Shown one piece after another: positions 20,866-39,833 of a stretch of 64,000 nt of DNA. The position numbers and the translations under genes were made by a program. Source of the stretch: Alphaproteobacteria bacterium (lineage in GTDB: Bacteria > Pseudomonadota > Alphaproteobacteria > RF32 > CAG-239); the NCBI GenBank assembly GCA_048463395.1, contig DBFWPL010000025.1:9545-73544 (forward strand), written 5' to 3'. Under the pieces are notes generated by a model. That model did no database searches. It worked only from the letters and a program-made list of their open reading frames with translations, and was not told where the DNA came from. Numbering within the stretch: the stretch's first letter is position 1; every line of letters begins with the position of its first letter.

Positions 20866-20867
20866 GT

Positions 20868-23531: not shown

Positions 23532-24570
23532 TTACCTCGGCAACGGCTTTAAAGTGTTCTTGCGGAATGGCCTGATCCAAATCCACCGAAGCGAATAAGG
23601 CACGAGCCAATGGCGGGTTTTCAACAATAGGGACATTATTTTCTTCCGCCAATTCTCTAATGCGAAGAGCCAAATGGTCAAGACCTTTGGCAACAACGAC
23701 CGGAGCATCCATTGTTTCCATTTTATATTCCAAAGCAACGGCGTAATGGGTCGGGTTGACGATAACCACGTCGGCTTTCGGAACATTGTCCATCATGCGG
23801 TGGCGGGCTCTTTCCATACGAACCTGTCGTATTCTGGATTTAACCAGAGGGTCGCCTTCCATTTGTTTGTATTCGTCTTTGACCTCTTGTTTGGTCATGC
23901 GTAATTTCTTCAAATGGCTGTATTTCTGCCAGGCGTAGTCGGCAAGAGCTATAATCAGCACGGCAATCAGAACCGTAAATATCAATAATACGACAACTTT
24001 ATGAATAAAAGATAAAATTGCCATGGTATCCATGGTCGGCATTAAATTTATTTTCTCAAGGTAGGGGCGGATAACCAGAATACTAATGAACGTGATTACG
24101 GTAATCTTTATAATGCCTTTTAAGCTTTCCACGACTTTTTTCATATTAATAAATTTGGGAAGAGCGGCAAAAATGTTTAATTTGTTCCAATCGGGAAGGA
24201 GTTTTTTGGGAGCGTAAACAAAACCGGTTTGGGCAATACTGGCCGTTAGTCCCAGAATCATAAAAATCAGGAACGGAATGCTGAGAATTTTCAACATTCC
24301 CATAACCGTTTGTCCGAAAAGAAACTGCAAATGTTTGGGGTCGGTCGGAATGCTTTCGGGATTTTCGATGAATTTAAGCGAAAGAGTATAAAACCATTTG
24401 AACATAAGCGGTAATAACAGCCAGACGACAAACAGCATTCCCAGTAACATCAGGAAGCTTTTGGCATCCTGAGAAATCGCCACATCGCCTTCTTCTTTGG
24501 CTTTGCTGATTTTTCGTTCCGACGGTTCTTCCGTTTTGGAGGCGTCATCGTCATCTTCCGCGGCTATCAT
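23494..24570 (-). CDS. flhB: Flagellar biosynthesis protein FlhB
   Basis: The NPTH autocleavage motif (VNPTHYAVAL) is present. Length is 358 aa. Confidence 0.9.
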   Translation of the reverse strand: MIAAEDDDDASKTEEPSERKISKAKEEGDVAISQDAKSFLMLLGMLFVVWLLLPLMFKWFYTLSLKFIENPESIPTDPKHLQFLFGQTVMGMLKILSIPFLIFMILGLTASIAQTGFVYAPKKLLPDWNKLNIFAALPKFINMKKVVESLKGIIKITVITFISILVIRPYLEKINLMPTMDTMAILSFIHKVVVLLIFTVLIAVLIIALADYAWQKYSHLKKLRMTKQEVKDEYKQMEGDPLVKSRIRQVRMERARHRMMDNVPKADVVIVNPTHYAVALEYKMETMDAPVVVAKGLDHLALRIRELAEENNVPIVENPPLARALFASVDLDQAIPQEHFKAVAEVIGYVMQLKNPQA

Positions 24571-24579
24571 CCGGCACCT

Positions 24580-25335
24580 CTATTTGGCAAACTGTTCCAA
24601 GCCTTCTTCATAATACTTCATAAACCAAAGTATCATCATCGGCATGGTGATTAAAAACACGCCCAGTCCCAGATAAATTTGCAAGGGCAGGGATAAGAAG
24701 AAGATGTTTAGCTGCGGCATTAATCTGGAAACCAGTCCCATGCCGACATAAAACACTATCGTAAAAGCGATGAACGGGGATCCGATTTTAAATCCCATGA
24801 CGAAAGATTTGTTCATCGTATCGCTCAGAAAATTTGAGAAATCTTCGACCGGAAGCGGTGCACCGACACTGAAAATACGATAACTGTCGACAACGGCTTC
24901 CAACATGAGGTGGTGCAGATCCGTGATGAAAATAACGACAATAGCCAATAAACTTAAGAATGTTTCAATCACAACGGATTGGTTCATGCTGGTCGGGTCA
25001 AAAATCTGGGCATTGGAAAAACCGATGGCTTGTCCGGCGAAGTTTCCGGCCAGATTGAGTGCGGAAAAGAGTATTTGCATCAGGACACCGAAGAAAATTC
25101 CGATGGTTATTTCAAACAGGCAGATTTCTGCAAAATCCAAGAAATGCTTGGGTTGAACAGGGAGATATTCATTCAGAAAAGGCACTAAAACAAAAGTCAG
25201 AGCCAAAGCTACGGAAAGACGGTATCTCATGTTGACGTAATTTGTCATAAAGCCCGGCATTATCATAACGGCCGAGCCTATTCTTAAAAATACGAGAACA
25301 TAGCGATAAAGTTCCAGATTTAAAAGTTCTGTCAT
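24580..25335 (-). CDS. fliR: Flagellar biosynthesis protein FliR
   Basis: This is a 251-aa polytopic membrane protein of the FliR family, located between fliQ and flhB. Confidence 0.85.
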   Translation of the reverse strand: MTELLNLELYRYVLVFLRIGSAVMIMPGFMTNYVNMRYRLSVALALTFVLVPFLNEYLPVQPKHFLDFAEICLFEITIGIFFGVLMQILFSALNLAGNFAGQAIGFSNAQIFDPTSMNQSVVIETFLSLLAIVVIFITDLHHLMLEAVVDSYRIFSVGAPLPVEDFSNFLSDTMNKSFVMGFKIGSPFIAFTIVFYVGMGLVSRLMPQLNIFFLSLPLQIYLGLGVFLITMPMMILWFMKYYEEGLEQFAK

Positions 25336-25338
25336 TTG

Positions 25339-25605
25339 TTATCCGCCGCTTACGATTTTATCAAATAAAGTATCCGTAAGTATTTTCATTTGTGAAAGCA
25401 TGAACGGAAACAGCAAAATTAGAGTTACAAATACAGCCAGAATTTTAGGAACAAAGGCCAGAGTCATTTCCTGAATTTGGGTCAGAGCCTGAAAGATACC
25501 TACAATCAGACCAATAAACAAGGCTACCAGCAAAATCGGGCTGACAATCTTGATTAAGGTAAAAATCGCGTCTCGGGATATGTCTAATACTTCAACTTCA
25601 TTCAT
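25339..25605 (-). CDS. fliQ: Flagellar biosynthesis protein FliQ
   Basis: An 88-aa two-TM protein of the FliQ family. Confidence 0.85.
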   Translation of the reverse strand: MNEVEVLDISRDAIFTLIKIVSPILLVALFIGLIVGIFQALTQIQEMTLAFVPKILAVFVTLILLFPFMLSQMKILTDTLFDKIVSGG

Positions 25606-25619
25606 CTGTCTGTCTCATT

Positions 25620-26762
25620 TTATTCCAGCGGGGTTTGTTTTTCAAAATAGCGGTGGTTTTCAATTCCGGTCAAAAATGCTCCGTCGTATCCGTTGTCTAT
25701 AATTTTTTCAAAATTGCGACCCATGATTTTTTTCCATGCGTCATTCCAATATTCGGTAATTATGCTGTCATTGCTGACAAATGATATTCTCTTGAGCCAT
25801 GCCGGATTTCCGATTTTCCAGCCGAGTTTGCGAAGATATGGGTTGTTTCTGATTTCGCTGACGTTAAATAAGGCAATAATTTGTCTGCGGGTACCGTTTT
25901 TTTTGAATTTCAACCGATCAACATCTTCCTGAGTGAGAACTTCCCGGTTATGAAACAACGGATTGATAACGACAACATCGTAATTTGAATGACGGATGTC
26001 ATCAATGAAACCTTCTTTATTTTTATATTCTTTATCGTTTATCAAAAAAGAGATGTTTTGAGCGTCTTGCAGGTTATAAATATTTTTGGCGTTTTCATTA
26101 ATAACCGGTTGTCCGACAATGTGTTTGAAGGCTTCATCTTTGTTAATGAACGGATAGGTTAAACTACCCGTTGCCACGGCGTTTTCAATCGCTTTGTCAA
26201 AAGCTTTTCCGTTTCGGCAATGATCTATTGAAATAAGTTTGATTTTTTCATTGTGAATAATCGGACTTATTTTTTGCGGTTGGCAAAATTGGTTATTTAA
26301 GACAATGGCATCTATATTTTGGACATAGGGTTGTACACCGTAACCTGAGGCGGCATCTATTTCCGAAGCCGGTTGTTTTAATTTTGTCAGGAAGCTAGGA
26401 TCTTTGGCGTTTATTTCTTTTTCTCGGGCAGCATTATAGCCTTCCAAATGATGTTCCCAGAGGCTTTTGCTTAAGAGTTCTTGTCCGTCGTGGACGATGA
26501 TTTGAAAATCCTTATTTTTATTTTTTGCATAGCGGCTGAGTAAAATTAAATTATCCCGCATTTTTTCACGATAATTGATAATATGCCGCGGCGGTACTTC
26601 TATATCAAGGATGTCTTCCGCATAAGTATAAGGATTTTCCTGATTAAAACCGTATAACCCGGTATCCGCACCTGCCGGAAAGGCAAGTGCGGTTAAAATA
26701 CCGGAAATTATTAGGTTTCTATGTAATGACATCGGCTTTTTGTTTTCCTGTACGTTGAGCAA
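25620..26762 (-). CDS. Hypothetical periplasmic protein, possibly a GH114-like glycoside hydrolase domain protein
   Basis: A signal peptide begins at the internal Met (MSLHRNLIISGILTALA). No diagnostic motif was recognised. The tool ORF start overlaps the pgm 3' end. Confidence 0.45.
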   Translation of the reverse strand: MLNVQENKKPMSLHRNLIISGILTALAFPAGADTGLYGFNQENPYTYAEDILDIEVPPRHIINYREKMRDNLILLSRYAKNKNKDFQIIVHDGQELLSKSLWEHHLEGYNAAREKEINAKDPSFLTKLKQPASEIDAASGYGVQPYVQNIDAIVLNNQFCQPQKISPIIHNEKIKLISIDHCRNGKAFDKAIENAVATGSLTYPFINKDEAFKHIVGQPVINENAKNIYNLQDAQNISFLINDKEYKNKEGFIDDIRHSNYDVVVINPLFHNREVLTQEDVDRLKFKKNGTRRQIIALFNVSEIRNNPYLRKLGWKIGNPAWLKRISFVSNDSIITEYWNDAWKKIMGRNFEKIIDNGYDGAFLTGIENHRYFEKQTPLE

Positions 26763-28338
26763 TTTCAGCCGTGTTCATGGCAATTTCCAAAATACCTTTC
26801 AGCATTTGCCGAGGGTCTTCCAGAAGAGCTTGTGTTTCATACTTTTCAAGGTAAACACGCAGGGTAGCACCGCTTGATCCGGTTCCGGACAGGCGGTAAA
26901 CGATACGTGAGCCATCCTCAAAGGTAATGACCAGTCCGTTTTTGGTTGAGGAGTGATCAACCGGGTCGTTGTAAATAAACGGAGCGGCTTTGGCAACTTT
27001 ATATGTTCCGAAAATTTGTCCGTTTAAAGACGGCAGTTTTTCTTCCAAGTCAGCCATTAGTTTATCGGCGACTTCGGTGGAAATGCCTTCGAAGTCGAAA
27101 CGCATATAATAACTGCGGCCGTATTTTTTCCAGTGTTCAAGCGTAATTTCCTCAACGGATTTTCCGGTGGCGGCAATGATGTTGAGCCAGAACAGAACTG
27201 CCCAAATACCGTCTTTTTCGCGGATGTGGCTGGAACCTGTTCCGAAGCTTTCTTCTCCGCAGAAGGTAATTCTGTTGGAATCCATCAGGTTTACGAAATA
27301 TTTCCACCCGGTTGGAACTTCGTAATAGCCGATGTTGTGGGCTTTGGCCACTCTGGAAACGGCTGAAGAAGTTGCGGCTGATTTGGCAACGCCGAAGATA
27401 CCCTTTTTGTAAGCCGGAATGAGTTGATAGTTATCCGTTAAAATTGCCAAGCTGTCGCTCGGGGTAACGAAGAACTTTTTGCCCAGAATCATGTTGCGGT
27501 CGCCGTCGCCGTCATTGGCGGCTCCGAAATCCGGAGCTTTATCCGAGAACATTAGGTCAACCAATTCTTTGGCGTAAATCAGGTTCGGATCCGGATGTAA
27601 GCCGCCAAAATCAGGCAGCGGACGGAAGTTAACGACAGAACCTTTCGGTGCTCCGAGAATTTCTTCAAAAATTCTTTGGGCGTAAGGTCCGGTAACGGCG
27701 TTCATTGCATCGAATCTCATTGTAAAGCCGGATTGGAAAAGTTTTTTGATTGCCTCAAAATCAAAAATTTCCTGCATCATATTTACATAATCAACAACAG
27801 GGTCGATGATTTCAATCGTCATATCGCCGAGTTTTTGAGTGCCGATTTCAGACAGGTCAATGTCCGGAGCGTCAAAAATCTTATATTCTTTAATTTCCTT
27901 GGTATTTTGATAAATTTTATCGGTTACGCTGCTTGGAGCCTGTCCGCCGCTTTCATTGGCATATTTAATGCCGAAGTCGCCGTTTTCTCCGCCCGGATTA
28001 TGTGAAGCAGAGAGGACAAAACCGCCGTCAGCTTTGTTCTTTAAGATAATGTGAGAACCGGCCGGCGTGGAAATAAAGCCGTCTTTGCCGATAATCAGTT
28101 TAGCAACGCCGTTGGCTGCAGCCATTTTTATGATTTTTTGGATGGCAACGTCATTGTAAAAACGTCCGTCGCCGCCGACAAGGTAAACTTTTCCGCTTAA
28201 GTCTCCGATAGTGTTGAAAATACTTTGCATAAAGTTTTCGACATAATTAGGCTGCATGACGACTTTGGATTTTTTTCTTAAGCCGGCAGTACCCATTTTT
28301 TGGTCGGTATACGGGGTTGTCGCGATTGTTTTTATCAT
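26719..28338 (-). CDS. pgm: Phosphoglucomutase (alpha-D-glucose phosphate-specific)
   Basis: The N-terminus MIKTIATTPYTDQKMGTAGLRKK matches the PGM N-terminal pattern. The active-site Ser region SASHNPGG and the metal-binding motif DGDGDRN are present. The tool ORF starts at 28371, and the Met at 28338 is the preferred start. Confidence 0.9.
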   Translation of the reverse strand: MIKTIATTPYTDQKMGTAGLRKKSKVVMQPNYVENFMQSIFNTIGDLSGKVYLVGGDGRFYNDVAIQKIIKMAAANGVAKLIIGKDGFISTPAGSHIILKNKADGGFVLSASHNPGGENGDFGIKYANESGGQAPSSVTDKIYQNTKEIKEYKIFDAPDIDLSEIGTQKLGDMTIEIIDPVVDYVNMMQEIFDFEAIKKLFQSGFTMRFDAMNAVTGPYAQRIFEEILGAPKGSVVNFRPLPDFGGLHPDPNLIYAKELVDLMFSDKAPDFGAANDGDGDRNMILGKKFFVTPSDSLAILTDNYQLIPAYKKGIFGVAKSAATSSAVSRVAKAHNIGYYEVPTGWKYFVNLMDSNRITFCGEESFGTGSSHIREKDGIWAVLFWLNIIAATGKSVEEITLEHWKKYGRSYYMRFDFEGISTEVADKLMADLEEKLPSLNGQIFGTYKVAKAAPFIYNDPVDHSSTKNGLVITFEDGSRIVYRLSGTGSSGATLRVYLEKYETQALLEDPRQMLKGILEIAMNTAEIAQRTGKQKADVIT

Positions 28339-28439
28339 CAGATTTCCTTTATCTTTAATAGTGAAACGCATTGATTAATAATCTGGAGTTTATCACTTTG
28401 GTTTCTAAACTCAAGGATAAAGGTAGTTATTAATAACCA

Positions 28440-28967
28440 TTATTTTTTCAAGAGGGTTTGGCAGGCCTTATTTATCATTTTCGCAAAATAGGGATGGGTG
28501 AGATTTTGCTTAAGAGCCGTGTCCAAAAGCTGTTTTTGGCGTTTTGGCAAAGTCTCAGGGTTTTGCAGGGCGGATAAGTGTAAACCTAGGATTTTTAATG
28601 CTTGCTGCGGTGAATAGCTTGAATACAATTTGTCAAAGTTTTGTTGTTTGTTTATTTTTTTGTTGATGTGTGAAAGTGTAATTAAACTTTTTTGACCTGA
28701 GAAAAAGCGGCGAATCTGATACAGATATACAAGGTAACAGACCAAGCCAAGGCAAAGGCATCCGAACAGCCCCCGAGAGAGTGAGGTTGTGGAGATAGTC
28801 AGGCCATAGCCTGCGTAGAAAAGCATTCCCCAAGCAATGTTTAACATTGTGGTTTCGGGAATATAGAAAAAATTGCGATGAGGGTTCTGGTGAAAGATAT
28901 TTTTAAGTAAAGCCGCGGTCAGAATAACCACTGCAGCGACAAACATTAAGAAACTCAGTTCTTTCAT
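28440..28967 (-). CDS. Hypothetical membrane protein
   Basis: A 175-aa protein with 3-4 predicted TM helices and no recognisable motif. Confidence 0.5.
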   Translation of the reverse strand: MKELSFLMFVAAVVILTAALLKNIFHQNPHRNFFYIPETTMLNIAWGMLFYAGYGLTISTTSLSRGLFGCLCLGLVCYLVYLYQIRRFFSGQKSLITLSHINKKINKQQNFDKLYSSYSPQQALKILGLHLSALQNPETLPKRQKQLLDTALKQNLTHPYFAKMINKACQTLLKK

Positions 28968-28968
28968 T

Positions 28969-29778
28969 CTATTCTTTCGGGCAAATAAACTCGGCTAACG
29001 CTTGGATTTCTCTTTTGGCGGCAACGTGGGAAACGCTCATGCGGCGTTTTAAAGCTTCGTCTCTCATATCCAAAACCGTCAATCCTTCCAAGAACATTTC
29101 TTTATAGATTACCCTGTCTTTCAGACCGGTTGAGAATCTAAAACCGTAAAGTTTAGAGAGTTTTTCCAGATATTCAAATACCAAGTGTTTATTTTTTGAT
29201 TGTAATGCAGAAATTTTGTTGCCGACAACAATCCAGTTAAGGTAAGCGTGTCCCTGAGAGGCCAAATATTTTTTTACATCCCAGATATAGTTGGCGTAAT
29301 GTCCCGGTTTGCCGATTTTTTGTTCCGTAAAGTCAATCTCTGCCAAAGCGTTTAAATCAATCAAACTGTCTGAAATCGGAGTGATAAGCGTATCTGCAAA
29401 TTTGTGAGCTTCTTCAAAAAGGTAGTTCTTGTTGCCCGGTGTATCAATGATGATGGCATCATAGGATGGGATGAGTTTTTGAATCTGCAGACGCACATTG
29501 CTGCGATCCGCCGGGATTAATTCATAACTTTCCTGCGGGTAAAAACGATAATGTATCGGCATAGGCAGAGAGATTTTGTTTTTTTTGCAAAAGTTTTGGC
29601 GGTTTTCGATGTATTTGGATAATGTTCCCTGCCGACCGTCCATGTCAATCGTGGCAACGCTAAATCCTTCTTTGAGCAGTTTAACGGCCAAGTGCATGGA
29701 GATTGTAGATTTTCCCGTTCCGCCTTTTTCGTTGCTGACAACGATGATATGGGCTTTCTTGCTAATATCGTCTATCAT
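28969..29778 (-). CDS. mipZ: ParA/MinD-family ATPase, MipZ-like
   Basis: The deviant Walker A is NEKGGTGKST. The stretches IDMDGRQGT...ENR and GLKDRVIYKEMFLEGLTVLDM match Caulobacter MipZ (IDLDLRQRT...ENR; GLRDRVIYRELFPFGLTIADL). Confidence 0.75.
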   Translation of the reverse strand: MIDDISKKAHIIVVSNEKGGTGKSTISMHLAVKLLKEGFSVATIDMDGRQGTLSKYIENRQNFCKKNKISLPMPIHYRFYPQESYELIPADRSNVRLQIQKLIPSYDAIIIDTPGNKNYLFEEAHKFADTLITPISDSLIDLNALAEIDFTEQKIGKPGHYANYIWDVKKYLASQGHAYLNWIVVGNKISALQSKNKHLVFEYLEKLSKLYGFRFSTGLKDRVIYKEMFLEGLTVLDMRDEALKRRMSVSHVAAKREIQALAEFICPKE

Positions 29779-30992
29779 TAGTACTTACTATGTGCCAATA
29801 AAAGTTGTTTGTTGGTGTTTACTGCGACTACTATACATGACTTGTTTGATTTTTTCAAACCTTTACACGCTTCATCCGCATCATTTTTTTCAAACCCGAT
29901 GATTTTTGAACGATAAACAATGGCGGCACCACTTTCAACGGGTTCTACGGCAATGTGTTTGTTTGAGAATCTGCGGGAAACTTCCTGTTCAATTTTTAAA
30001 GCATAGTTTCTGGCCTTGGTATAGTTGGAAAAGGCTCCTACCTGAATCCCGTAACTTCCTTCAGTCGGATTTTGTTCTTCGCCGGCGGAAATTTGCCGTG
30101 TTTTGTTGGCAGATTTAATGTTTTTTTCTTCCAATCGGGCATAAATGCTTGATTTATTCAGGTTATCGTTCATTGCCAGTTTGGTTAAAGCTTTATCCAT
30201 TAACTGAGAAACTTTTTGATCCCTGTTTTGGGCGGTTTTGTGCCCCATGGTAACGGCAATGACTCTTTGTCCGTCTCTTTGTGCTGAAGTGATGATATTG
30301 AAACCGGCGGCGGCGGTATATCCGGTTTTCATGCCGTCAGCCCCTTCAAATGATTTGAGAAGGTGGTTGTGGGTGTAAATGGTTTGACCTTTGTAGGTAA
30401 ATTTTTTGCAGGAAAACCAAGAGTAATATTGTGGAAAATGGTGGTACATAGCCGCCCCGAGAAGAGCCATGTCCCGAGCCGTGGTTTTTTGAGCTTTGTT
30501 CGGCAAGCCGGAGGCGTTTTTGAATGTGGTGTTTTTCATGCCGAGCTCTTTGGCGACTTTAGTCATGGTTCTAGCAAAATTTTCTTCCGTATACCCTAAG
30601 CCTTCTGCTAAAACGGTGGCACAGTCGTTGGCTGATTTGACAATAAGTGCCATAATGGCGTCTTTGACTTTGATGGTTTCTCCGGCTTTCAGCCCGAGTT
30701 TTGACGGCGAACGGTTAGCCGCATTACGGGAAACGGGCAATTTATCTTCCAGTTTAATCAGTCCCTTTTCAAGAGCGTCAAAGGTAATGTAAAGAGTCAT
30801 TACTTTAGTCAATGAAGCCGGATAACGCAATGTATCTGCTGCAGATGAGGAAAGGACTTCTCCGTTTTCGGCGTTGATGATAATAGAAGAGGTGGAGGCT
30901 GCGGCTTTTGATATATTGGATGTGCACAAAAATAAAGTGCAGATTGTGCACATTCCCAAATGCAACAGACTATTTCTTATTGTTTCTTTCAT
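29778..30992 (-). CDS. dacC: D-alanyl-D-alanine carboxypeptidase (S11, PBP5/6-like) with a C-terminal SPOR domain
   Basis: A signal peptide is followed by the SxxK motif (ASLTK), SxN and KTG motifs. The C-terminal SPOR-like domain reads GIQVGAFSNYTKARNYA. Confidence 0.8.
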   Translation of the reverse strand: MKETIRNSLLHLGMCTICTLFLCTSNISKAAASTSSIIINAENGEVLSSSAADTLRYPASLTKVMTLYITFDALEKGLIKLEDKLPVSRNAANRSPSKLGLKAGETIKVKDAIMALIVKSANDCATVLAEGLGYTEENFARTMTKVAKELGMKNTTFKNASGLPNKAQKTTARDMALLGAAMYHHFPQYYSWFSCKKFTYKGQTIYTHNHLLKSFEGADGMKTGYTAAAGFNIITSAQRDGQRVIAVTMGHKTAQNRDQKVSQLMDKALTKLAMNDNLNKSSIYARLEEKNIKSANKTRQISAGEEQNPTEGSYGIQVGAFSNYTKARNYALKIEQEVSRRFSNKHIAVEPVESGAAIVYRSKIIGFEKNDADEACKGLKKSNKSCIVVAVNTNKQLLLAHSKY

Positions 30993-31167
30993 TTCCAGCT
31001 CTTCTGCCTTGAATTTTCTTTAAGTTAATTCTATGGCAAAATAGCAAATAAATTGTTAATTTTTGAATTATAAAAGATTTTTTTGAATACTTCTTTAGTC
31101 TATAAGAGATGTATAAAATTTTTGCTTGACTTTATTGCATATTCTCTGTAAAACCCAATAGTCAACG

Positions 31168-31243
31168 GCGAACGTAGCTCAGTTGGTAGAGCCCCGGTTT
31201 GTGGTACCGGTTGTCGTGGGTTCGAGCCCCATCGTTCGCCCCA
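31168..31243 (+). tRNA. tRNA-His (anticodon GTG)
   Basis: A cloverleaf can be drawn with an extra 5' G at -1, the acceptor stem GCGAACG/CGTTCGC, a D arm GCTC-AGTTGGTA-GAGC, an anticodon stem CCGGT/ACCGG with loop TTGTGGT, and a T arm GTGGG-TTCGAGC-CCCAT. A 3' CCA is encoded. It is followed by a hairpin terminator. Confidence 0.9.
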
Positions 31244-31513
31244 GTTTGAGAAAAAGCATCGTTTAATACGGTGCTTTTTTGTTTATGGTTATCAGGGGCT
31301 CGAACCAAGGTTCGTCTGGCTCATAAGCTCACTTTCAGTTCGCTAACTCGCTGCGGTCACTCCATTTGTAACATTTGTTTCGCAGCACTGTCGTTTGCTC
31401 ACAAACTAACAAATTGTCGTCTGTCGTCAAAAAACAATCCGCCGGATTGTTTTTTATTCTCCAGCCCCATCGTTCGCCCCAGTTTGAGAAAAAGCACCGT
31501 TTAATACGGTGCT
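31225..31513 (+). repeat. 61-bp direct repeat of the tRNA-His 3' end plus its downstream terminator (copies at 31225-31285 and 31453-31513), likely an att-like integration scar
   Basis: Both copies read AGCCCCATCGTTCGCCCCAGTTTGAGAAAAAGCA[T/C]CGTTTAATACGGTGCTTTTTTGTTT, with one mismatch. The intervening 167 bp contains an inverted copy of the tRNA T-arm (GGGGCTCGAACC) and a hairpin plus T6 terminator (CAATCCGCCGGATTGTTTTTT). Confidence 0.7.
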
Positions 31514-31524
31514 TTTTTGTTTTT

Positions 31525-31986
31525 TTAAGTAATGTCATCTTTTTCCATGTATATTTTCATAATATCGGAGAATGTCGGATATTCGGCTCGGGAAAGAAGA
31601 TTTATTCTATCCGCAACGGCATAAGAATCTGTCTGTTTGTCATAGAAAATAATACTTTCGGAGATTCTACCTAAGACGGTTTTATTCCTGAAAAAGTCAT
31701 AATCGGCATAAGTTTTGGCGATGCTTGCCAGGTCAGGAAAAACATATTCTTTTTCTTTCCGGTTGTGAGAAACGGTTCCATAAAGTTCGAGCCCGTTATA
31801 GATAAAACCGTCGGAGAGTTTTAGAAAGACTTTGTATTCGTCCGGAAGTTCCGAGAAGCCGTTATCGGTAAGGACGGTATTAATCATGTTAATCTTTTTA
31901 TCATCGGCCGGAGAAAATGTTACGCAGCCGTTTTTTTGTTTAAAAACGTTTAAGCAGCGGCTAATCATTGTATATTTTCCCTTCAA
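31525..31986 (-). CDS. SUKH-family (SMI1/KNR4-like) immunity protein
   Basis: The SUKH signature LPDEYKVFLKLSDGFIYNGLELYG is present, followed by IIFYDKQTDSYAVAD (the G/D-rich second motif). Confidence 0.65.
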   Translation of the reverse strand: MKGKYTMISRCLNVFKQKNGCVTFSPADDKKINMINTVLTDNGFSELPDEYKVFLKLSDGFIYNGLELYGTVSHNRKEKEYVFPDLASIAKTYADYDFFRNKTVLGRISESIIFYDKQTDSYAVADRINLLSRAEYPTFSDIMKIYMEKDDIT

Positions 31987-32566
31987 AATAAGGTATAAAT
32001 ATTTTTTTGTGCAATCGCAGGAAGTTGTTGGTTATCTGCATATCAAAAATCTGGTGCAAATTATTGTGGGTCGGATGCGTTTTTATGAGCATAAGATTGT
32101 TAAAGCCGGTGTTGCCGTCGAAGTCAAGCGGAATCTTGAGATGGGTGTTTAAATTCTCTGGGGCAATGCCTTGTTTTAAGAAATTTATATCTTCCTCAGA
32201 AAGTCCGGCCTCCCGACATTCAGAAGTACAGGAGTAGGCGAGAAGTTTAAAAAACATGATTCTGGAACGTTGATATTCTCCCAAGATTTTTTGCATATCC
32301 TGCCAAGACTGCGGATGATAACTTTTTTCAATCAATTCAAACTTAGAGAGTTTTAACTCATTGATTTTCTTCTCAACCAGAGTTTTCATCTCTTGTTCGG
32401 AAATGGTTGAGATTTGTTTGGGAGATTGGGGTTCGTTTATTTCTTTATGAGGAGGAATGTAGATTTCCAGTGTTTCTCCAACCAAATCCCCGTAAGCCGC
32501 AACCAAAGATGTTTTGGGTTTCTCTTCGGTTTTTGGCTGGTTGATTTGGTTGGACCATTCCCACAT
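31961..32566 (-). CDS. Hypothetical protein with a C-terminal HNH-like nuclease motif, candidate toxin
   Basis: The C-terminal region NTHLKIPLDFDGNTGFNNLMLIKTHPTHNNLH fits the HNH pattern His-(Gly-rich)-Asn-Leu-...-His-x3-His. The gene overlaps the downstream SUKH gene by 26 nt. Confidence 0.45.
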   Translation of the reverse strand: MWEWSNQINQPKTEEKPKTSLVAAYGDLVGETLEIYIPPHKEINEPQSPKQISTISEQEMKTLVEKKINELKLSKFELIEKSYHPQSWQDMQKILGEYQRSRIMFFKLLAYSCTSECREAGLSEEDINFLKQGIAPENLNTHLKIPLDFDGNTGFNNLMLIKTHPTHNNLHQIFDMQITNNFLRLHKKIFIPYFEGKIYND

Positions 32567-32588
32567 TATAAAATCCCGTGATTATTTG

Positions 32589-34811
32589 TTATTCCTGATT
32601 GTCATCGTCGAATTCGTCATCTTCAAATTCATCGTCTAAATCTTCGTCCGGATTATAATCGAGGCCAAGTTTGGAGAGCATGTCTTCGTTAATATCCTCG
32701 CGTTGAGCGACAATCCAATCCGGAACCCATGGAGCCGGAGGAAGTTTGGATAAGGCCAGCATTTGTTTATCCAGATAAAAACGCGGTGCATCGGCGATGA
32801 TCGGGCGGTCGATGGAGCCTTGCATCAGGACAACTTGTTTTAACATCGGCAAGCTCAGCAATTGCGTGGTGCTGATAACCGAAGTTCCCTGTAATTGATA
32901 ACTGACGTTTTTGGCAAACGGATTGGAGCCTTTGCCCAGACCGCCTTCGTTTTTGGAGAAAGACGTGGTTTGAACGGTTTTGTTACCAATCATTTTAGAG
33001 AAACGTTGGGCTGTCTGTTCGTTGTTCTGAGACAAGATGACTTTGCATGCGGTGGTGGAAATCACGGTTTCCAAATCGTCTTTTCCGTATTTACCGGAGA
33101 TTTGTCCCAGGTCTTGTCCGATAAGCAGATATGACACTTTCTGTCCACGACCGACCGCCGGTCCGTCGATAATGGCTTTTAATTTAGGCATTTGCGGAAA
33201 CTCGTCGAGTACGAACAGGCAAGGGTAAGGCCCCATTTTGCCTTCGGTTTTGTTGACGAAGTTAGGCGGATTTGCAATCAGATATGAAGACATAAGCTCA
33301 ATAAACGTACCGCTGATGATGTTCAAGGCTCGTGCGTCAACCTGGTTAACGGAAAGATAAACGGAGATAGGTTTCCATTCTCCCGTAATCGGGTCTTTCA
33401 TACCGCGGAGGTCTCTAAATTGCAAATCAGAGAAACTGGTGCGGGATACCACGGCCGAGTTTTTAAAGATGCCGATGCCCGAGAAACCGGTAGAAAGCAC
33501 GGAACCTCTTTCTTTATCCGGCATGGAGCTTAATTGGCTCAATTCAACGATACAGCGTTGAGAGTAACCGAATTTGCGGGCTTCGGCAATGGCTTCTTCA
33601 AGCAAATCTCTCATCGGGTCAGCCATGGCGGCCATTTGGTCGCCTTCTTCCAGACGGCGTTTGATTTCCTGAGACTGCTTAATCTGGGCTTCGGTAATCC
33701 ATTCCAAAATCATGGCCAGGCAAGATTCATGCCCGATCCATTTTTCCGGCAGCAAAGCCCAAGTTCCGATAGGCAGGTAATTGTCTATGGTAATATTGTT
33801 GTTTTTGAGGTTTTGGATAGCCTGAGCCGACATCGGGTCGTGCATTTCCATATAATAACCTTCAAGTACGCGTTTGTCTTCTTCATCCAGTTTGCCTTCA
33901 TAGACACGGCCGATGAAGTAGTCGTTAGCCCGGGCCCTTTCGCATTTTGAGGCAATGAAGTGAATGAAACCGGTCAGGGCTGAACGTCCGGTCTTGGACC
34001 AGTGTGGGTCGGCACCGCCTTTAGGGTCTTCAACCAAAATGTTACACATGGAGTCAACATACATATCGCGGTCAGGTCCCGGCATTGGCAATGCTTGCGG
34101 GGAAAGCGGATTCCAGCTTGGATAATAAACACCTTCTGCCGGATTATCTTCGGCACCCCAGTTAATTACGAAAACAGGTCCGTCTTTGGCTCGGGCTCCG
34201 GTTGTGCTGTAACACAGTTCCGGTTTAGGGTCGTTTACGATAATGCTCATGCCGTGAGAGTTGAAAATGGTCGGAATAACCACTCCGGCTGTTTTACCGG
34301 TACCCGGAGGAGCACAACACAGGGTGGCCAGTGTTTCTTTGAGCATAAGCATTTTGCCGTTGAATTTTCCGACAACCTGACAAAAACCGTCAAAGCCGAG
34401 CAACGGCATTTTTTTGATGTCTTTTTCCGTGGCAATGCGGGCAGAACCGTGGATGTTTGATTGGAAACGGTATGGGTTGGTTATCACGCCGATAATAATT
34501 CCGGTCGGTAGGGACAGAATCGGAAGAATCGGAAGCCAGAGACTTACCGAGAACGGGCCGTGATATCCGGATAATTGTTTGAACCAGTTCCAATATCTTG
34601 AGAATAGGAAGTTTGGATTGTTGATAATGGCACTGATAAATTTACCGACATCGTTCAGCGTGTCTTTGGAAATACCGCTGCCGATAAGGTACCCTAAAGG
34701 CATGGATATGATTGCGAGAACAATTGTAACGGCCAATGAAATGACGATGGTTAAAACCATCCATTTCACCGCGTTATCATACTCTTCCCATTCTTCTCCT
34801 CTTTTTTGCAT
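32589..34811 (-). CDS. Type IV secretion/conjugation coupling protein (VirD4/TraG/DotL superfamily ATPase)
   Basis: Two N-terminal TM helices are followed by a Walker A motif (APPGTGKTAGVVIP) and a Walker B motif (LFVLDEFPQ). Length is 740 aa, with an acidic C-terminal tail. Confidence 0.85.
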   Translation of the reverse strand: MQKRGEEWEEYDNAVKWMVLTIVISLAVTIVLAIISMPLGYLIGSGISKDTLNDVGKFISAIINNPNFLFSRYWNWFKQLSGYHGPFSVSLWLPILPILSLPTGIIIGVITNPYRFQSNIHGSARIATEKDIKKMPLLGFDGFCQVVGKFNGKMLMLKETLATLCCAPPGTGKTAGVVIPTIFNSHGMSIIVNDPKPELCYSTTGARAKDGPVFVINWGAEDNPAEGVYYPSWNPLSPQALPMPGPDRDMYVDSMCNILVEDPKGGADPHWSKTGRSALTGFIHFIASKCERARANDYFIGRVYEGKLDEEDKRVLEGYYMEMHDPMSAQAIQNLKNNNITIDNYLPIGTWALLPEKWIGHESCLAMILEWITEAQIKQSQEIKRRLEEGDQMAAMADPMRDLLEEAIAEARKFGYSQRCIVELSQLSSMPDKERGSVLSTGFSGIGIFKNSAVVSRTSFSDLQFRDLRGMKDPITGEWKPISVYLSVNQVDARALNIISGTFIELMSSYLIANPPNFVNKTEGKMGPYPCLFVLDEFPQMPKLKAIIDGPAVGRGQKVSYLLIGQDLGQISGKYGKDDLETVISTTACKVILSQNNEQTAQRFSKMIGNKTVQTTSFSKNEGGLGKGSNPFAKNVSYQLQGTSVISTTQLLSLPMLKQVVLMQGSIDRPIIADAPRFYLDKQMLALSKLPPAPWVPDWIVAQREDINEDMLSKLGLDYNPDEDLDDEFEDDEFDDDNQE

Positions 34812-34825
34812 TTTTACTCTACACC

Positions 34826-36106
34826 TTACGCAATGTTTCTAATTAGTTTTTTTACTTTTTCAAATTTGTCTTTATCGATTTTATCGTTTGCTTCTTCCAA
34901 TGTTTTGGAGAACAGTTTCAGTTCTTTCGGGGTTCCCCGGTCAATGCGGGTAACGTTGATGTCCATGTCGTCCCAGACTTCAAACATATCTTCAGCATTG
35001 ATGATATTGCCGATTTGTTCCACAACATAAGCCTTAATTTCAAATTTCAAATCCTGTTCTTCTAATTTGTCGGCTAAAATCCGGCGGGACAAATCAACCT
35101 TGCGTACAGGGGAAATCCGGTGGGAACTCTCAGAAAACCACAGCGGTTCTTCGTCATTGAAACGTTCTTCATCAGCGAGCCAGTCGCCCGGTTCTTTATC
35201 CAATAAACAAAGACAGATTTGTTTGTCGGCAACGCCGATAAAGTCTATCAGGTTATTTTTGATGGTTGTTCCGGAAATGACCTCATATCCCTTTTGTTTG
35301 ATGACTTCCAGACTGGAGTTGCCGCTTCCCCGAGAGGAAGGTTGTTTGGCGGCAGGAGTTGTTGTCGCAGGGGCTTTTTTCTCTTTAGGGGTTTTGGTGT
35401 TTTTGTTTTTTGTTGTTTTATCTTCTTGTCGCAGAGAAGGAGTTTCATTTACAGGTTCTTCTTTTCTGTCATTATCCTGTTTATCAAAAGCGTCAAAATT
35501 AAAGTCAAAATCGTCTTCTTCACTATCGTCAAATCGGAAAAGGGAGTGGTCGAATACTTTTTCCGGTGTAGGAGCCGGTTTGACTTCCGGAGCGGGAGCT
35601 TTTGGTTTGATGCGGTTCGGAGCGGAACGAGAGGTTGCCGGCCGAGGTGATAAATCAAATTTCTCGTCAATCGGGTTGCGAATACTGCGAGGACGGACTT
35701 CTTTGTAGGATTTTTTCTTTTTAACAGCTCGGGTGCTGGCTGCCGTATTGGCAATCATTTTAACCGGTTTGAAGAAAATGCTGTTGAAGAGTTTTAATGG
35801 AGACAAGGCAATTTTTAAAAAGATTTTTTCCCAGGCAATCATGCTTAAAGCCGCCCAGCCGGTCAGCCAGAGCGGAATAAACGTCAGGATGATTAACACA
35901 AAAGCCCATTCTTTGGGATCATCAATGACCCAGCCGGACATCCACAAATCCCATGCGTGTTGCCAGTGGCCGGTGCGGAAGATGTCAAAACGCCAGTTTC
36001 GGAGCATAATAACCCTAATGCCTTCAATGAAGAACACGCTCCAAAAAAGGCCGACACATATGATTCTTATTAATATCAATAAGGGTTTCAAGCTTCTCTC
36101 CAACAA
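34826..36106 (-). CDS. Hypothetical membrane protein upstream of the T4CP (DotM/IcmP-TrbA-like position; function unknown)
   Basis: N-terminal TM helices are followed by a Lys/Pro-rich linker, an acidic DDSEEDDFDFNFD patch and a C-terminal globular region. The DotM-like assignment is inferred only from position and architecture. Confidence 0.5.
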   Translation of the reverse strand: MLERSLKPLLILIRIICVGLFWSVFFIEGIRVIMLRNWRFDIFRTGHWQHAWDLWMSGWVIDDPKEWAFVLIILTFIPLWLTGWAALSMIAWEKIFLKIALSPLKLFNSIFFKPVKMIANTAASTRAVKKKKSYKEVRPRSIRNPIDEKFDLSPRPATSRSAPNRIKPKAPAPEVKPAPTPEKVFDHSLFRFDDSEEDDFDFNFDAFDKQDNDRKEEPVNETPSLRQEDKTTKNKNTKTPKEKKAPATTTPAAKQPSSRGSGNSSLEVIKQKGYEVISGTTIKNNLIDFIGVADKQICLCLLDKEPGDWLADEERFNDEEPLWFSESSHRISPVRKVDLSRRILADKLEEQDLKFEIKAYVVEQIGNIINAEDMFEVWDDMDINVTRIDRGTPKELKLFSKTLEEANDKIDKDKFEKVKKLIRNIA

Positions 36107-36147
36107 TTATGCCATAGTATAACAGCATTAGAATTGTTAACAACTGT

Positions 36148-36642
36148 TTATTTTTCGCTGTTCATTTTTTCCTGAATGCTTTCTCTTATTTGAGAAGAGG
36201 TGTTTTCCGGAGATCTGTTTTTGTCAAAGAGTTTCATTCTGTCTTCAATCAGCTCATCCAGTTTCTGAGATTTTTTGCTGCCGCCCATGTTTTTTAAGAC
36301 AATACGGGAAGAAGCTTCGCCATATTTTTTGATTTTACGTTTGTTATACCAGATAATCGGTGTCAATAACAATTGCACGAAGTCTTTTCGGTAAAAATAT
36401 CTCCAGCCGAGTATCCAGACTGGTATAATCAGCAGCAGACAAGTAACAAAAAGATAGTCTTTTCCGCTTTTGATGCGGCCGCCGTTTTCCCAAAAGGTAT
36501 TGATTGTCTGCCAGTCTCCGGCGGAAAGGTAGTTAAAATTCCAAATAAGATAAATAAGAAGGCCGGTGCAATAGACATAGGCATAGGTCCAAATTGTTCC
36601 GACCAAACAAAATTTGATGAATTTGGCTAGTTTTTTAAGCAT
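36148..36642 (-). CDS. Hypothetical membrane protein
   Basis: A 164-aa protein with 3-4 TM helices and a charged C-terminus. Confidence 0.5.
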   Translation of the reverse strand: MLKKLAKFIKFCLVGTIWTYAYVYCTGLLIYLIWNFNYLSAGDWQTINTFWENGGRIKSGKDYLFVTCLLLIIPVWILGWRYFYRKDFVQLLLTPIIWYNKRKIKKYGEASSRIVLKNMGGSKKSQKLDELIEDRMKLFDKNRSPENTSSQIRESIQEKMNSEK

Positions 36643-36664
36643 TTTTCTTGATTTCCTTATTTCT

Positions 36665-38341
36665 TTATCTACCGCCTATGCCACCAAGCATTTGAGCCAT
36701 TTGACGGTCTTTTAAGGCTTGTTGTTGTTTTTGTTGATTATTTTTGTTGATGGTTTGCTGAGCTTTTTTGTCGGCTTCAACGGTTCCTGATACAGGTCCT
36801 GTCGCATTGTAATATTCTAATTTACTTTGCCATTTAATATATTCTTGTTGTTCTTTTTCGCTTAGATTTCCTTTGTGATCAAGGGTTTCCAGTTTCTTTT
36901 GGCAAATATCAACCAGTTTTTGTCTCCGGTCAATGTTATTGACTCGTCTTTGGGTTGCTTGCACCAATTCCTGATCTTTCTCGGCCATTTTCCCCATCAT
37001 CATCTGTTCAATATTTTTTCCTTCAACGGCTTCCTGATAAAGGCCTTTAGGTTGATTATCCCGCTGATTGTCATTGGCGGGAGCGTTATCCCAGCCTAAA
37101 GATTCTTTTATTTTATCAAGTGCCGGATTTTCTTTCGGCTCTTTGCCTTTTTCAACATAATGCCCTTTTTTATGGTTTTTGTCAGCTTTTTCTCTGGCTT
37201 TTACGGCCGTTTTTAAGGTTTCATTCAAAAATGCGGTCGGATCTCGGCCCTCTTTTCTCTCCTGATCACATTTCTTGGCAATTAACAGTTTGGCTTTCTT
37301 TTGATAAGCATCAAACAGTTTTTCGGGATTCGCATTTTTGAAGGCATTAGGGTCGGCATGCAATTCCGCGGTCATTTGAGCCTGGGCGATTAATGCGGAA
37401 CTTTGTTCTACGTTTATTAAGTTGTCACGCAGATCTTTCATATTTTTCCCCAGGTCTTTGAGGAAATCTTTTTTTGTTCTTTTAGGATTATTCTTATCTG
37501 GATGCTCAGGCATATTTTGCAGAAAACGTTTTGTCTCCGGACTGAAAGATGTTTCATCGTAGTTTCCTGCCATGGCGGCTTTGATGTCTTTTTGGAATGA
37601 TTTGTCTTGTTCTTCCAACTCTTCCGTTTTCTTTAAACTTTTTTTGTCGGCATAATTATCTACTTTGTTTTTTTGTGTAGAGGTTTTATCCGGCGTGTTG
37701 CCTGATATTATTTTGTCTTTTTGTCGACCTTGCCGTGCTCTGAAATAAGCTCCGCTAAGTTTTTCACTTCCTTTTTTCCATAACCAGTTCGCTCCGCCGA
37801 TAAGCCAGTCAGTATACATATATTGGATAATATCACCTTCTTTGAACGGACCGTCTTCTTCTTTTCCTTTAGGTTGTTCACCGTCTTTGTTTTCAATTTC
37901 CGGAGCATCTTGTTCTTCCAGATTCTTTTTTTGTTCTTCAAGGGCGGCTCTTTCCGGTGCATCCAGACCCTCGACAAGAAGTTTATGATTGATTTCGTCA
38001 ATTGTCAGGCCTTTGGCACTTTCTGCCGTGATTCTTTCTTTCGGTTGAGACTGTTCCGGTGCAGTACCTTCCACGGTTAAGTTCTTATTTTCTTCGGAGA
38101 CGCCCAAGGTTTCCGGTTGTTTTGTTTCTGAATTGGTTGTTGCAGGAGTTTCTCTTGAGACTTCCTCAGAAATTCCCATCGTCGTTCTTTTCGGCTCCTG
38201 TTGCTGTGTTGCTGCCGGAGAAGCCTGAGACGGTTGCTGAGAAGCTGCAGTGTTTGTGGCGGTCGGCTTTGTTTGCGGCGTTTGGGTATTTGTTGCAGCC
38301 GGTTTAGGAGAAGTTGGGTTTGTCTGTTTTGTATCAGCCAT
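36665..38341 (-). CDS. Hypothetical low-complexity charged protein (Gln/Lys/Glu/Thr-rich)
   Basis: A 558-aa protein with a disordered N-terminus (TNTQTPQTKPTATNT...) and no recognisable catalytic motif. Confidence 0.5.
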   Translation of the reverse strand: MADTKQTNPTSPKPAATNTQTPQTKPTATNTAASQQPSQASPAATQQQEPKRTTMGISEEVSRETPATTNSETKQPETLGVSEENKNLTVEGTAPEQSQPKERITAESAKGLTIDEINHKLLVEGLDAPERAALEEQKKNLEEQDAPEIENKDGEQPKGKEEDGPFKEGDIIQYMYTDWLIGGANWLWKKGSEKLSGAYFRARQGRQKDKIISGNTPDKTSTQKNKVDNYADKKSLKKTEELEEQDKSFQKDIKAAMAGNYDETSFSPETKRFLQNMPEHPDKNNPKRTKKDFLKDLGKNMKDLRDNLINVEQSSALIAQAQMTAELHADPNAFKNANPEKLFDAYQKKAKLLIAKKCDQERKEGRDPTAFLNETLKTAVKAREKADKNHKKGHYVEKGKEPKENPALDKIKESLGWDNAPANDNQRDNQPKGLYQEAVEGKNIEQMMMGKMAEKDQELVQATQRRVNNIDRRQKLVDICQKKLETLDHKGNLSEKEQQEYIKWQSKLEYYNATGPVSGTVEADKKAQQTINKNNQQKQQQALKDRQMAQMLGGIGGR

Positions 38342-38422
38342 GGTTTTTATCCTGCTTAAATTTGATTTTATTTAATTTTATCACACTAAAATGTTTTTGT
38401 CCATATTTTTGCCAATTTTATT

Positions 38423-39451: not shown

Positions 39452-39461
39452 CTTACTTTTC

Positions 39462-39752
39462 CTAATTGATTTTTAATGTAGAGAGTTTTTGTCCGGATAT
39501 GGTGTCAAAAATTATGATACGGTCGGATTCTCCGCCGCCTTCTATATGAATATATAAATGTCCGTTTTGTTCAACCATATTTTTAACGAAACTGCCTTGA
39601 GGTTCCTGCAGGTTGATTTGCCGGGGGAGAGGTTCCGTTTTCTTTTGATTTTTCCGGTACAGAGAACCTAAAAGCATAAGACTTCCGAAAATCAGTGCAA
39701 AAGTCAAAACAAAAACGGTTGTTTTCACTAATCTCAGTTTGTCCATCATCAA
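39462..39752 (-). CDS. Small membrane-anchored protein
   Basis: A 96-aa protein with an N-terminal signal-anchor. Confidence 0.4.
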   Translation of the reverse strand: MMMDKLRLVKTTVFVLTFALIFGSLMLLGSLYRKNQKKTEPLPRQINLQEPQGSFVKNMVEQNGHLYIHIEGGGESDRIIIFDTISGQKLSTLKIN

Positions 39753-39833
39753 TTCCTTGCAAATTATGTGATTATCTGTATTTTAATATTGATTTGGTAA
39801 CTATATGGTAAATTTTTTGATTTTAAATTAAAG

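Follow-up and report, generated by a model that had tools for sequence, protein, structure and literature searches.

Why should the 3' end of a tRNA-His gene stand twice, each time followed by a terminator, with foreign sequence between the two copies? This arrangement lies in a window of 64,000 nucleotides, by which we mean the whole stretch analysed here (positions 9,545 to 73,544 of the forward strand of contig DBFWPL010000025.1, assembly GCA_048463395.1, Alphaproteobacteria bacterium); coordinates in the window count from its first letter. An initial annotation, made from the sequence alone, had read it as an integrase scar at the boundary of a genomic island. The second tRNA-His 3' end closes, on the right, one unit of a family of small, folded, non-coding repeats that lie next to tRNA genes in gut RF32-like Alphaproteobacteria; we put at about one half the probability of the reading favoured here, in which the core of the unit is or was a mobile element. 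Members of this family share a conserved fold, are spread over the genes of several tRNAs and occur in arrays and as decayed copies; related species have empty sites, and the genes to the right of the unit are syntenic.

Anatomy of the unit behind tRNA-His

The tRNA-His gene of the window is intact, with both G-1 (31167) and CCA encoded in the DNA and a T-arm of GTGGG TTCGAGC CCCAT. Its 3' end belongs to a direct repeat whose two copies (31222-31284 and 31460-31522) are 63 nt long, differ by two mismatches, start 238 nt apart and enclose a gap of 175 nt (31285-31459). The tRNA part of the first copy is the last 19 nt of tRNA-His, at 31225-31243. This 19-mer, AGCCCCATCGTTCGCCCCA, occurs twice in the window at up to three mismatches, against a chance expectation of 0.01, which places the repeat beyond chance. 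The duplication of tRNA end and terminator described in the initial annotation therefore stands, with these values replacing its 228-bp spacing and 167-bp gap. The features of the locus are as follows.

31168-31243, plus strand: intact tRNA-His(GTG) gene (ARAGORN; Rfam tRNA, 63.1 bits)
31222-31284, plus strand: first direct-repeat copy, with tRNA nucleotides 58-76, the terminator and a few extra bases (repeat search; 63 nt, 97% identical to the second copy)
31250-31280, plus strand: intrinsic terminator of tRNA-His, with a 13-pair stem including one G-T pair, and a T-run (terminator scan)
31295-31306, plus strand: inverted copy of T-loop and T-stem, GGGGCTCGAACC (GGGGCT CGAACC), the exact reverse complement of 31219-31230
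31301-31314, plus strand: foldback hairpin CGAACC-AA-GGTTCG, whose 3' arm GGTTCG equals tRNA nucleotides 52-57 (from the sequence; positions 9-14 pair with 19-24 in alignment A1)
31315-31462, plus strand: structured core of about 150 nt, with AG next (31315-31464 with the AG; covariance model R1, 153.9 bits, E = 1e-33)
31429-31455, plus strand: hairpin 2 near the 3' end of the core, AAAAAACAATCCG / CGGATTGTTTTTT (inverted-repeat search; 10 of 11 pairs covary across species)
31460-31522, plus strand: second direct-repeat copy (repeat search; 63 nt)
31463-31481, plus strand: second copy of tRNA-His nucleotides 58-76 (AGCCCCATCGTTCGCCCCA), 19 nt including CCA, an exact match to 31225-31243
31488-31518, plus strand: second tRNA-type terminator, with a perfect stem, placed so that the convergent minus-strand gene 31525-31986 ends there too (terminator scan and list of open reading frames, ORFs)

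If A denotes tRNA nucleotides 52-57 (GGTTCG), B nucleotides 58-76 (AGCCCCATCGTTCGCCCCA) and A' and B' their reverse complements, the window reads in order: tRNA ending in A and B, terminator, partial B' (GGGGCT), A' (CGAACC), AA, A, core, B (starting with AG), terminator. The core interrupts a partial tRNA copy precisely in its T-loop, after nucleotide 57 and before nucleotide 58 (GGTTCG-core-AGCCCC). The unit consists of terminator, inverted tRNA copy, foldback, a core of about 150 nt, tRNA nucleotides 58-76 and terminator. GGGGCT of the inverted copy can pair with AGCCCC at 31463-31468, forming an outer helix around foldback and core. The inverted T-arm segment had been noticed in the initial annotation and is confirmed as exact; its 12-nt match taken by itself is compatible with chance (BLAST E = 0.5), but chance is not the explanation, because the inverted copy recurs in other species and there matches each species' own tRNA.

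The core starts with TCTGGCTCATAAGC (5' end TCTGGCTCRTAAG) and carries the motifs CTAACTCGCTGCGGTCAC and CTGTCGTC; the hairpin follows, and the core ends in ATTCTCC with AG next. The hairpin at 31429-31455 had been described as the insert's own terminator with a T6 tract. The hairpin is there, and the terminator scan called only 31250-31280 and 31488-31518. A promoter scan of 30950-31650 found no sigma-70 consensus promoter. The core is single-copy in the 64-kb window by model R1, and neither BLAST nor R1 returned further copies of the 19-mer or the core there.

Over the 3 kb compared (30001-33000) the window is identical to a stretch of a metagenome scaffold of 145 kb. In a separate assembly of this organism a Logan contig stops at 31254, which is the expected k = 31 branch point on the repeat. 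At 31258 the tRNA-proximal terminator has a C-to-T change relative to 31496, turning a G-C pair of the stem into G-T, and the distal stem is perfect. The same pattern (proximal G-T, distal perfect) was seen in locus L004, though the terminator sequences differ between species; in both it could mean weaker termination after the tRNA, or be a coincidence.

Units behind tRNA-His in related species

Relatives were collected by scanning species-representative genomes for the penicillin-binding protein (PBP) encoded beside tRNA-His, which gave 80 orthologous loci at 55-88% PBP identity (loci from this and the other searches are numbered with the prefix L). All 80 come from uncultured gut Alphaproteobacteria bearing names such as 'Candidatus Scatocola', 'Azospirillum sp.' and 'CAG:495', and tRNA-His adjoins the PBP gene in at least 66 of them. 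The survey covered the regions around tRNA genes rather than whole genomes. Of the 66 tRNA-His loci, 24 have an exact inverted copy of 9 nt or more within 160 nt downstream of the tRNA, and 22 have a direct copy of 11 nt or more at 195-270 nt downstream; unit carriers number 22-24 of the 66 species with a readable region downstream of tRNA-His.

Units also occur in arrays, with at least four in L015, two full and one partial in L017 and L053, and further arrays in L010, L032 and L036; the last unit is usually truncated. Other related species have the same tRNA-His with a single terminator and no insert. These empty sites, which the initial annotation had proposed to look for, bear out its view that the repeats flank inserted DNA. 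At L012, L042 and L043 the terminators to the left and right of the unit differ, and the right-hand one of L012 is similar by eye to the sole terminator of the unit-less loci L044 and L048. Many contigs end 40-200 nt past tRNA-His, as expected if unresolved repeats break assemblies.

The inverted segment varies in extent. It covers only the T-stem in the window type, extends through the 3' strand of the acceptor stem (GCGAACGATAAGGCTCGAAC) in L018, L047, L053, L057 and L063, and in L008, L010, L024, L032, L065 and L067 consists of the acceptor 5' strand, an inserted hairpin and the T-stem complement. In each case it tracks the tRNA of its own species: GCGAACT goes with AGTTCGC in L006-L010 and GCGGAT with ATCCGC in L024, L032 and L065, and at the T-stem GGGGCT goes with AGCCCC, GAGGCT with AGCCTC and CGGGCT with AGCCCG (T-stems CCCC, CCTC and CCCG). 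In most species hexamers resembling a -10 element were seen by eye at a distance of 0-7 nt before the inverted segment. The phylogeny of the hosts and that of the 3' module agree only in part.

The same core at other tRNA genes

Viral and metagenome contigs were searched by pattern scans and then with model R1. About half of the 49 metagenome pattern matches were chance matches in GC-rich soil contigs, none of which scored with R1. Matches to R1 were found beside the genes of tRNA-His, Pro, Gly, Lys, Ala and Gln and at one tRNA-free site. The plasmid collection gave no match, and the phage collection gave one, an unannotated 7.8-kb faecal record. Full-text literature searches returned no description of this tRNA-linked core family. 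At tRNA-His the core has the orientation of the tRNA; the other sites are the following.

Pro(TGG): core in the anticodon loop, opposite in orientation to the tRNA
Gly(GCC): core at the junction of T-stem and acceptor stem, same orientation as the tRNA
Lys(CTT), L124: core in the T-loop, same orientation as the tRNA
Lys(CTT), L088: a module of about 80 nt between the core and an antisense copy of the last ~19 nt of the tRNA; core opposite to the tRNA
Ala(CGC): core in the D-loop, opposite to the tRNA
Gln(CTG): core, then the last 19 nt of the tRNA in antisense; core opposite to the tRNA
L047, 14342-14472: core remote from any tRNA, so that orientation does not apply

The core is a discrete repeated element with fixed ends. 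Partial copies of six or more tRNA species contain it, facing one way or the other, as a single copy or head to tail. Its ends, 5' TCTGGCTC... and ...YTYCCTCC 3', are not inverted repeats, and its flanks are tRNA fragments rather than short duplications. AG follows the core directly at most loci, usually with CCC next. At most loci an intact tRNA gene adjoins the partial copy that contains the core, the exceptions being L047, which has no tRNA, and L121. A foldback joins the partial tRNA copy on the tRNA side at most loci; some of these foldbacks are loopless perfect palindromes, as at a Pro locus where CCAAAGCAAG abuts CTTGCTTTGG, and L018 has a near-perfect one. Near-identical Pro contigs contain one, two or three cores joined directly at CTCT/TCTGG (the slash marks the junction). 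Decayed or truncated copies were found in L011, L022, L045 and L087. In L047 the copy remote from any tRNA and the tRNA-His-linked copy lie 4.6 kb apart; by inspection the two are identical over the 3' ~44 nt and differ in the 5' part.

At about 78-310 of L121 the core sits at the anticodon loop of a full-length but degenerate tRNA-Pro copy with a disrupted D-arm; no intact tRNA-Pro was found in this 4.3-kb contig. A second conserved module of about 80 nt (...GCGCTCATCGGC..GCCGACCGGC.TACT..CGT..GCCTTTCGCT.GTAGTC) was seen in L051 (about 1170-1290) and L088 (about 6720-6805). It is preceded by the last 19 nt of tRNA-Gln or tRNA-Lys in antisense, and it follows the core in L051 and precedes it in L088, as if a larger unit had been circularly permuted.

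A conserved fold in the core

The 20 cores that were aligned to derive consensus pairs came from different species and tRNA contexts. The core has 34 consensus base pairs, 28 of which show compensatory (double) changes. Paired cells make up 90% of the alignment at these positions, versus 70.8% in shuffled alignments, none of 500 of which reached the observed value, and at most 54% when the partners were slid. Between the helices lie nearly invariant single-stranded motifs (TCTGGCTCGTAAG, CTAACTCGCTGCGGTCAC, CTAACAAA, CGCCTGTCGTC). Conservation of the core with covariation spans at least 30 species. The outer helix changes along with the T-stem of each species' tRNA, from GC to AU in four of the nine sequences of alignment A1. 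At permissive thresholds Rfam matched only the tRNA in the window, L018, L032 and L015, and gave no family for the core in any of them.

The window core has a folding z-score of -4 on both strands. G-U pairs number 23 versus 14 A-C pairs (p = 0.19), and 10 versus 9 when hairpin 2 is left out, so that these counts assign the fold to neither strand. The lack of a clear G-U excess fits an element that works in both orientations. The initial annotation had also suggested that the insert might encode a small RNA, and the strongly conserved secondary structure is compatible with that suggestion.

Comparison with the RtT repeats of Escherichia coli

The closest architectural counterpart is the RtT/RttR repeat (Rfam RF00391), known from the tyrT-tyrV locus of E. 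coli K-12 as 178-bp repeats. These repeats have stood unexplained since 1978, a 45-year-old oddity. The E. coli unit consists of GGGGAAGGAT (antisense of tRNA-Tyr nucleotides 59-68), GAGAAGC, TTCGACC-AA-GGTTCGA, a core of about 67 nt and AATCCTTCCCCCACCACCA (tRNA-Tyr nucleotides 58-76). Both kinds of unit close with 19 nt from the 3' end of the tRNA that precedes them (58-76, CCA included). Both begin with an antisense copy of the 3' strand of the T-stem, which forms an outer helix with the 3' tRNA copy, and the same helix is present in the Rfam RtT consensus. Both have a foldback of the form TCGA(A)CC-AA-GGTTCG(A) and a foreign core at T-loop position 57/58, and both form tandem arrays whose copy number varies between strains. 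RtT units were found in 4700 of 5426 E. coli genomes, at 1-9 places each, which gives a range of 0 to 9 over all genomes.

The two families also differ. RF00391 has no match at E values up to 10 in the window, L018, L032 or L015, and model R1 has none in E. coli. The core measures about 150 nt here versus about 67 nt in RtT. The window family has an intrinsic terminator after the tRNA copy in every unit and occurs at six or more tRNA species in both orientations. RtT contains the small tpr ORF. Judged from the sequences, the relation to RtT is one of architecture and not of demonstrable homology. The type B units behind tRNA-His (L012, L015) had been suspected of homology to RtT from a shared CCCGAAGGGCG string; Rfam gave no support, and the suspicion was dropped. 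The heptamer GCGAAGC is found in the RtT core of E. coli (L134) and in short GC-rich type D cores behind tRNA-His (L019, L033), and not in the window core. As DNA, GCGAAGC folds into a mini-hairpin of unusual stability. For the tyrT-rttR region of E. coli a preprint reports that exonuclease-resistant 'mobilome' coverage rises under stress, and it calls the mode of action unknown (10.1101/2024.07.17.603846).

A proposed non-autonomous repeat element of tRNA genes

The unit is most likely a non-autonomous repeat element of tRNA genes that possibly produces an RNA; its mode of movement is an inference. On this account the core acts, or acted until recently, as a non-autonomous mobile element whose points of entry are tRNA-gene loops. 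Insertions would survive only where an intact copy of the tRNA remains alongside, which would account for the position of the core in a partial tRNA duplicate that a foldback joins to an intact gene. Units would be gained and lost through recombination between the 19-63-nt direct repeats, and a unit may be transcribed as an RtT-like RNA ending at the CCA of the tRNA.

A wider proposal is that the unit belongs to a general class of elements, not recognised until now, that enter exposed tRNA loops, with a preference for T-loop position 57/58 and with exactly the last 19 nt left on one side, each insertion leaving a frame of inverted copy, foldback and direct 19-nt copy; the RtT repeats of E. coli would then be footprints of the same process. 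On this proposal three observations point towards a single-stranded DNA (ssDNA) or an RNA/complementary DNA intermediate, for example rolling-hairpin or template-switching synthesis on the tRNA: the insertion points lie in loops of the folded tRNA, some foldbacks are loopless perfect palindromes, and exactly the last 19 nt of the tRNA stand in antisense beside the core (Gln and one Lys locus). We regard this generalization as unlikely.

Several points weigh against a mobile repeat element. A functional RNA would look just like this, with a conserved fold of several helices and invariant single-stranded motifs, and the inverted tRNA copy still pairs with the 3' tRNA copy as the tRNA diverges, which could reflect selection for a helix in an RNA. 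The surroundings of the copies inspected yielded no transposase, integrase or reverse transcriptase, and the core family has neither terminal inverted repeats nor a classical target-site duplication. Similarity of the core at tRNA-His tracks that of the hosts (Pearson 0.64), and inheritance at this site looks mostly vertical, with no demonstrably recent jump. Finally, the data are all metagenome assemblies, in which repeats are liable to misassembly, and L015 contains an N gap.

If the account given here is true, it describes a new and widespread family of folded non-coding elements in little-known Alphaproteobacteria of human and animal guts, and these elements probably break metagenome assemblies at tRNA genes. 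Direct repeats of tRNA 3' ends can mislead programs that look for islands, and here they would be the mark of a 238-bp repeat unit. The family would also give a comparative handle on the RtT repeats, through either a common route of insertion into tRNA genes or a common way of making RNAs with tRNA ends.

A small RNA gene as an alternative

The alternative that survives best holds that the unit is a stably inherited RtT-like small RNA (sRNA) gene that does not move and is transcribed together with tRNA-His by read-through of the terminator or from a weak promoter of its own. The 5' inverted segment and the 3' tRNA copy would form a tRNA-like T-stem or acceptor end, tRNA-processing enzymes would cut the transcript at CCA as for RttR, and the copies at other tRNA genes would be old paralogues. 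We consider this possible but somewhat unlikely. It would account well for the covariation of 28 of 34 pairs, for an outer helix that varies together with the tRNA, for the closure of every unit by the tRNA's own terminator and for a core whose identity tracks that of the host. The annotation of E. coli RttR, which runs from just past the tRNA CCA to the next CCA, agrees with it, and so do the -10-like hexamers seen by eye upstream of the inverted segment in most species. L010, L018, L032 and L065 carry the acceptor 5' strand as well, some with G-1, and would form a full mimic of a minihelix-His with CCCA.

The window variant, however, lacks the acceptor 5' strand, a strong terminator stands between the tRNA and the unit, and no consensus promoter was found in the window scan. 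At the Pro and Ala loci and at one Lys locus the core is antisense to the tRNA, and no CCA end exists on the sense strand there. G-U pairs show no clear excess over A-C pairs (23 versus 14, p = 0.19), many lineages have decayed copies or none, and the loopless perfect palindromes of the Pro loci and the near-perfect one of L018 are not RNA-like. The mobile-element and RNA-gene readings are not mutually exclusive.

Flanking genes and the island interpretation

The genes to the right of tRNA-His bear directly on the island that had been proposed. They encode in order a SUKH_5-like protein, a 201-aa protein, a VirD4/TraG-like protein, four hypothetical proteins and a DUF6476 protein, followed by rluD and rpoH. 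The first of them is given here as a feature.

31525-31986, minus strand: SUKH_5-like gene (weak Pfam SUKH_5 match), the first conserved right-hand neighbour and not cargo of the repeat

Everything up to about 39.8 kb had been taken for accessory DNA. The same order is kept beside tRNA-His in about 25-30 of 80 related species, including species without a unit, and syntenic homologues of the SUKH_5-like gene occur in over 20 species. Among the species that keep the order, the VirD4-like protein has 77-100% identity and is better conserved than the PBP, a housekeeping D-Ala-D-Ala carboxypeptidase encoded on the other side of the tRNA. GC content does not shift stepwise at 31.5 kb or at 39.8 kb. 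Pfam detected no integrase or recombinase domain in the ten ORFs of 31525-41815 or the ten of 18542-30992. A second island end further right had also been envisaged, and no third copy of the 19-mer exists in the 64 kb at up to three mismatches. We therefore reject an integrase scar at an island border on the conserved synteny of the right flank, the lack of an integrase in the flanking ORFs scanned and the lack of a distal repeat in the 64 kb. Homologous units, frequently arrayed, are present in relatives, which is largely what the initial annotation had named as pointing away from a mobile-element scar and towards a fixed duplication; the occurrence of the core at further tRNA genes goes beyond that.

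The coupling-protein gene (32589-34811, minus strand) and four genes for hypothetical proteins (34826-39451) have no other type IV secretion genes adjoining; the block looks like a conserved chromosomal module of unknown role and not like an island. On the minus strand at 31525-32566 the SUKH_5-like gene overlaps the 201-aa gene, which has no Pfam match, and the two may be an immunity/toxin pair. To the left of the tRNA lie core genes (PBP, mipZ, phosphoglucomutase, fliQ/fliR/flhB), and the minus-strand region 18542-28371 also encodes a PAS-domain hybrid histidine kinase, an Hda-like protein and an EptA-like phosphoethanolamine transferase.

An integrase could still have acted in a narrower sense, if the unit were a remnant or miniature of an integrase-mobilised element comparable to a cis-mobilizable element (CIME), with the 19-63-nt repeats as attL and attR, the core as a former attP arm region and a tyrosine integrase encoded elsewhere. 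We hold this to be quite improbable. Direct repeats of a tRNA 3' segment around an insert are the classic sign of integrase-mobilised elements, and the insert here is flanked by such repeats; the crossover would fall in the T-loop or the anticodon loop, both of which are known integrase sublocations. Like islands and CIMEs that target tRNA genes, the unit has a tRNA 3' direct repeat around an insert, keeps an intact tRNA and has junctions in the T- or anticodon loop. In contrast to them it has no integrase, cargo or distant second repeat and does have an inverted tRNA copy and a foldback, and its insert is a folded 150-nt module that occurs in either orientation and in arrays with core-to-core junctions. 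Within the repeat frame the core may point either way, the core-to-core junctions contain no att sequence, multi-helix covariation is not normal in the arms of attachment sites, and integrases do not normally use D-loop or acceptor-stem positions as sublocations. What had been taken for an island is core synteny that is conserved.

Variable DNA at the tRNA-His site and a prophage near a tRNA-Pro unit have also been considered in favour of an integrase. In some relatives 3-6 kb of variable DNA lie between tRNA-His (or the units) and the SUKH gene: about 7000-9500 in L003, with a Band-7 protein; about 3900-9700 in L007, with a P-type ATPase and an ArsR regulator; and about 6350-9200 in L010, with an ORF of ATPase size. 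The site is a real hotspot for variable DNA in relatives, and in the window its variable part is the 175-bp insert only. No integrase was found in the window flanks or in the variable DNA of L003 and L007. L084 carries at 1-12310 a prophage with a gpA-type terminase, a DNA methylase, a SAM synthetase-like gene, a large serine recombinase and DUF2924. It adjoins the tRNA-Pro-linked unit, its end lying about 600 bp away, but its recombinase is of the serine type and it sits outside the repeat pair.

Possible rolling-circle transposition, other elements and rejected identities

A rolling-circle or ssDNA element, a non-autonomous relative either of IS91 or Helitron-like elements or of HUH transposons that recognise hairpins, might enter tRNA genes while ssDNA folds like a tRNA; we attach little credence to this. 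The core resembles IS91 elements and Helitrons in its 5' TC, its subterminal 3' hairpin 7-8 nt before the end, its lack of terminal inverted repeats and of target-site duplication, and its head-to-tail tandem copies. GTTC and CTTG are the target tetranucleotides of IS91, and some left junctions follow them: GGTTCG/ (His), CATCTTG/ (Pro) and GGAGTTCA/ (Lys). The insertions lie in T-, anticodon and D-loops, and the structure seems equally conserved on both strands. The junction rule is nevertheless inconsistent and fails at CCCTG/, GCTAGC/ and CGCT/. No Rep, Y2 or other HUH transposase was found near the copies inspected, the conserved interior with its covarying long-range helices would not be expected, and the likeness to IS91 is one of general properties.

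Neutral tandem duplication by slippage or template switching at the terminator palindrome, with neither element nor function, is highly improbable: fold-back template switching at a palindrome does yield a direct-inverted-direct layout, and unequal crossing-over can enlarge arrays, but the core of about 150 nt does not come from local sequence, is conserved with covariation in at least 30 species and recurs at five other tRNA genes, which refutes such duplication as a complete account while the tRNA-derived frame may have arisen by it.

Two further kinds of element share traits with the non-autonomous repeat element favoured here. Miniature inverted-repeat transposable elements, Rickettsia palindromic elements and repetitive extragenic palindromes with their mosaic elements (REP/BIME) are likewise small, non-coding, multi-copy, strongly folding and patchily distributed, with decayed copies. 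Unlike them, the window family lacks terminal inverted repeats or target duplications, is tied to tRNA genes, carries partial tRNA duplicates and has a multi-branched fold rather than a single long hairpin. The insertion sites of eukaryotic Dada DNA transposons are tRNA and snRNA genes present in many copies (PMC8869645). They resemble the window family in lifestyle only, as mobile elements specialised in small-RNA genes, and differ in being eukaryotic and protein-coding and in making target duplications.

Other identities were tried and rejected. ARAGORN found no permuted tmRNA, and the acceptor is of the His type. A group I intron has no Rfam match, and the exon side of the 5' junction ends in G where U is required; a group II intron has no Rfam match either, and its end motifs are absent. 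For an OMEGA-type or bridge guide RNA, the would-be guide flank does not match the empty site. For a retroviral-style primer-binding site, the position and polarity of the antisense segments fit some loci only.

Two small ORFs overlap the repeat unit in the ORF list, at 31271-31504 on the plus strand and at 31335-31538 on the minus strand. GC skew is positive on the plus strand throughout the window, and most genes in this region lie on the minus strand.

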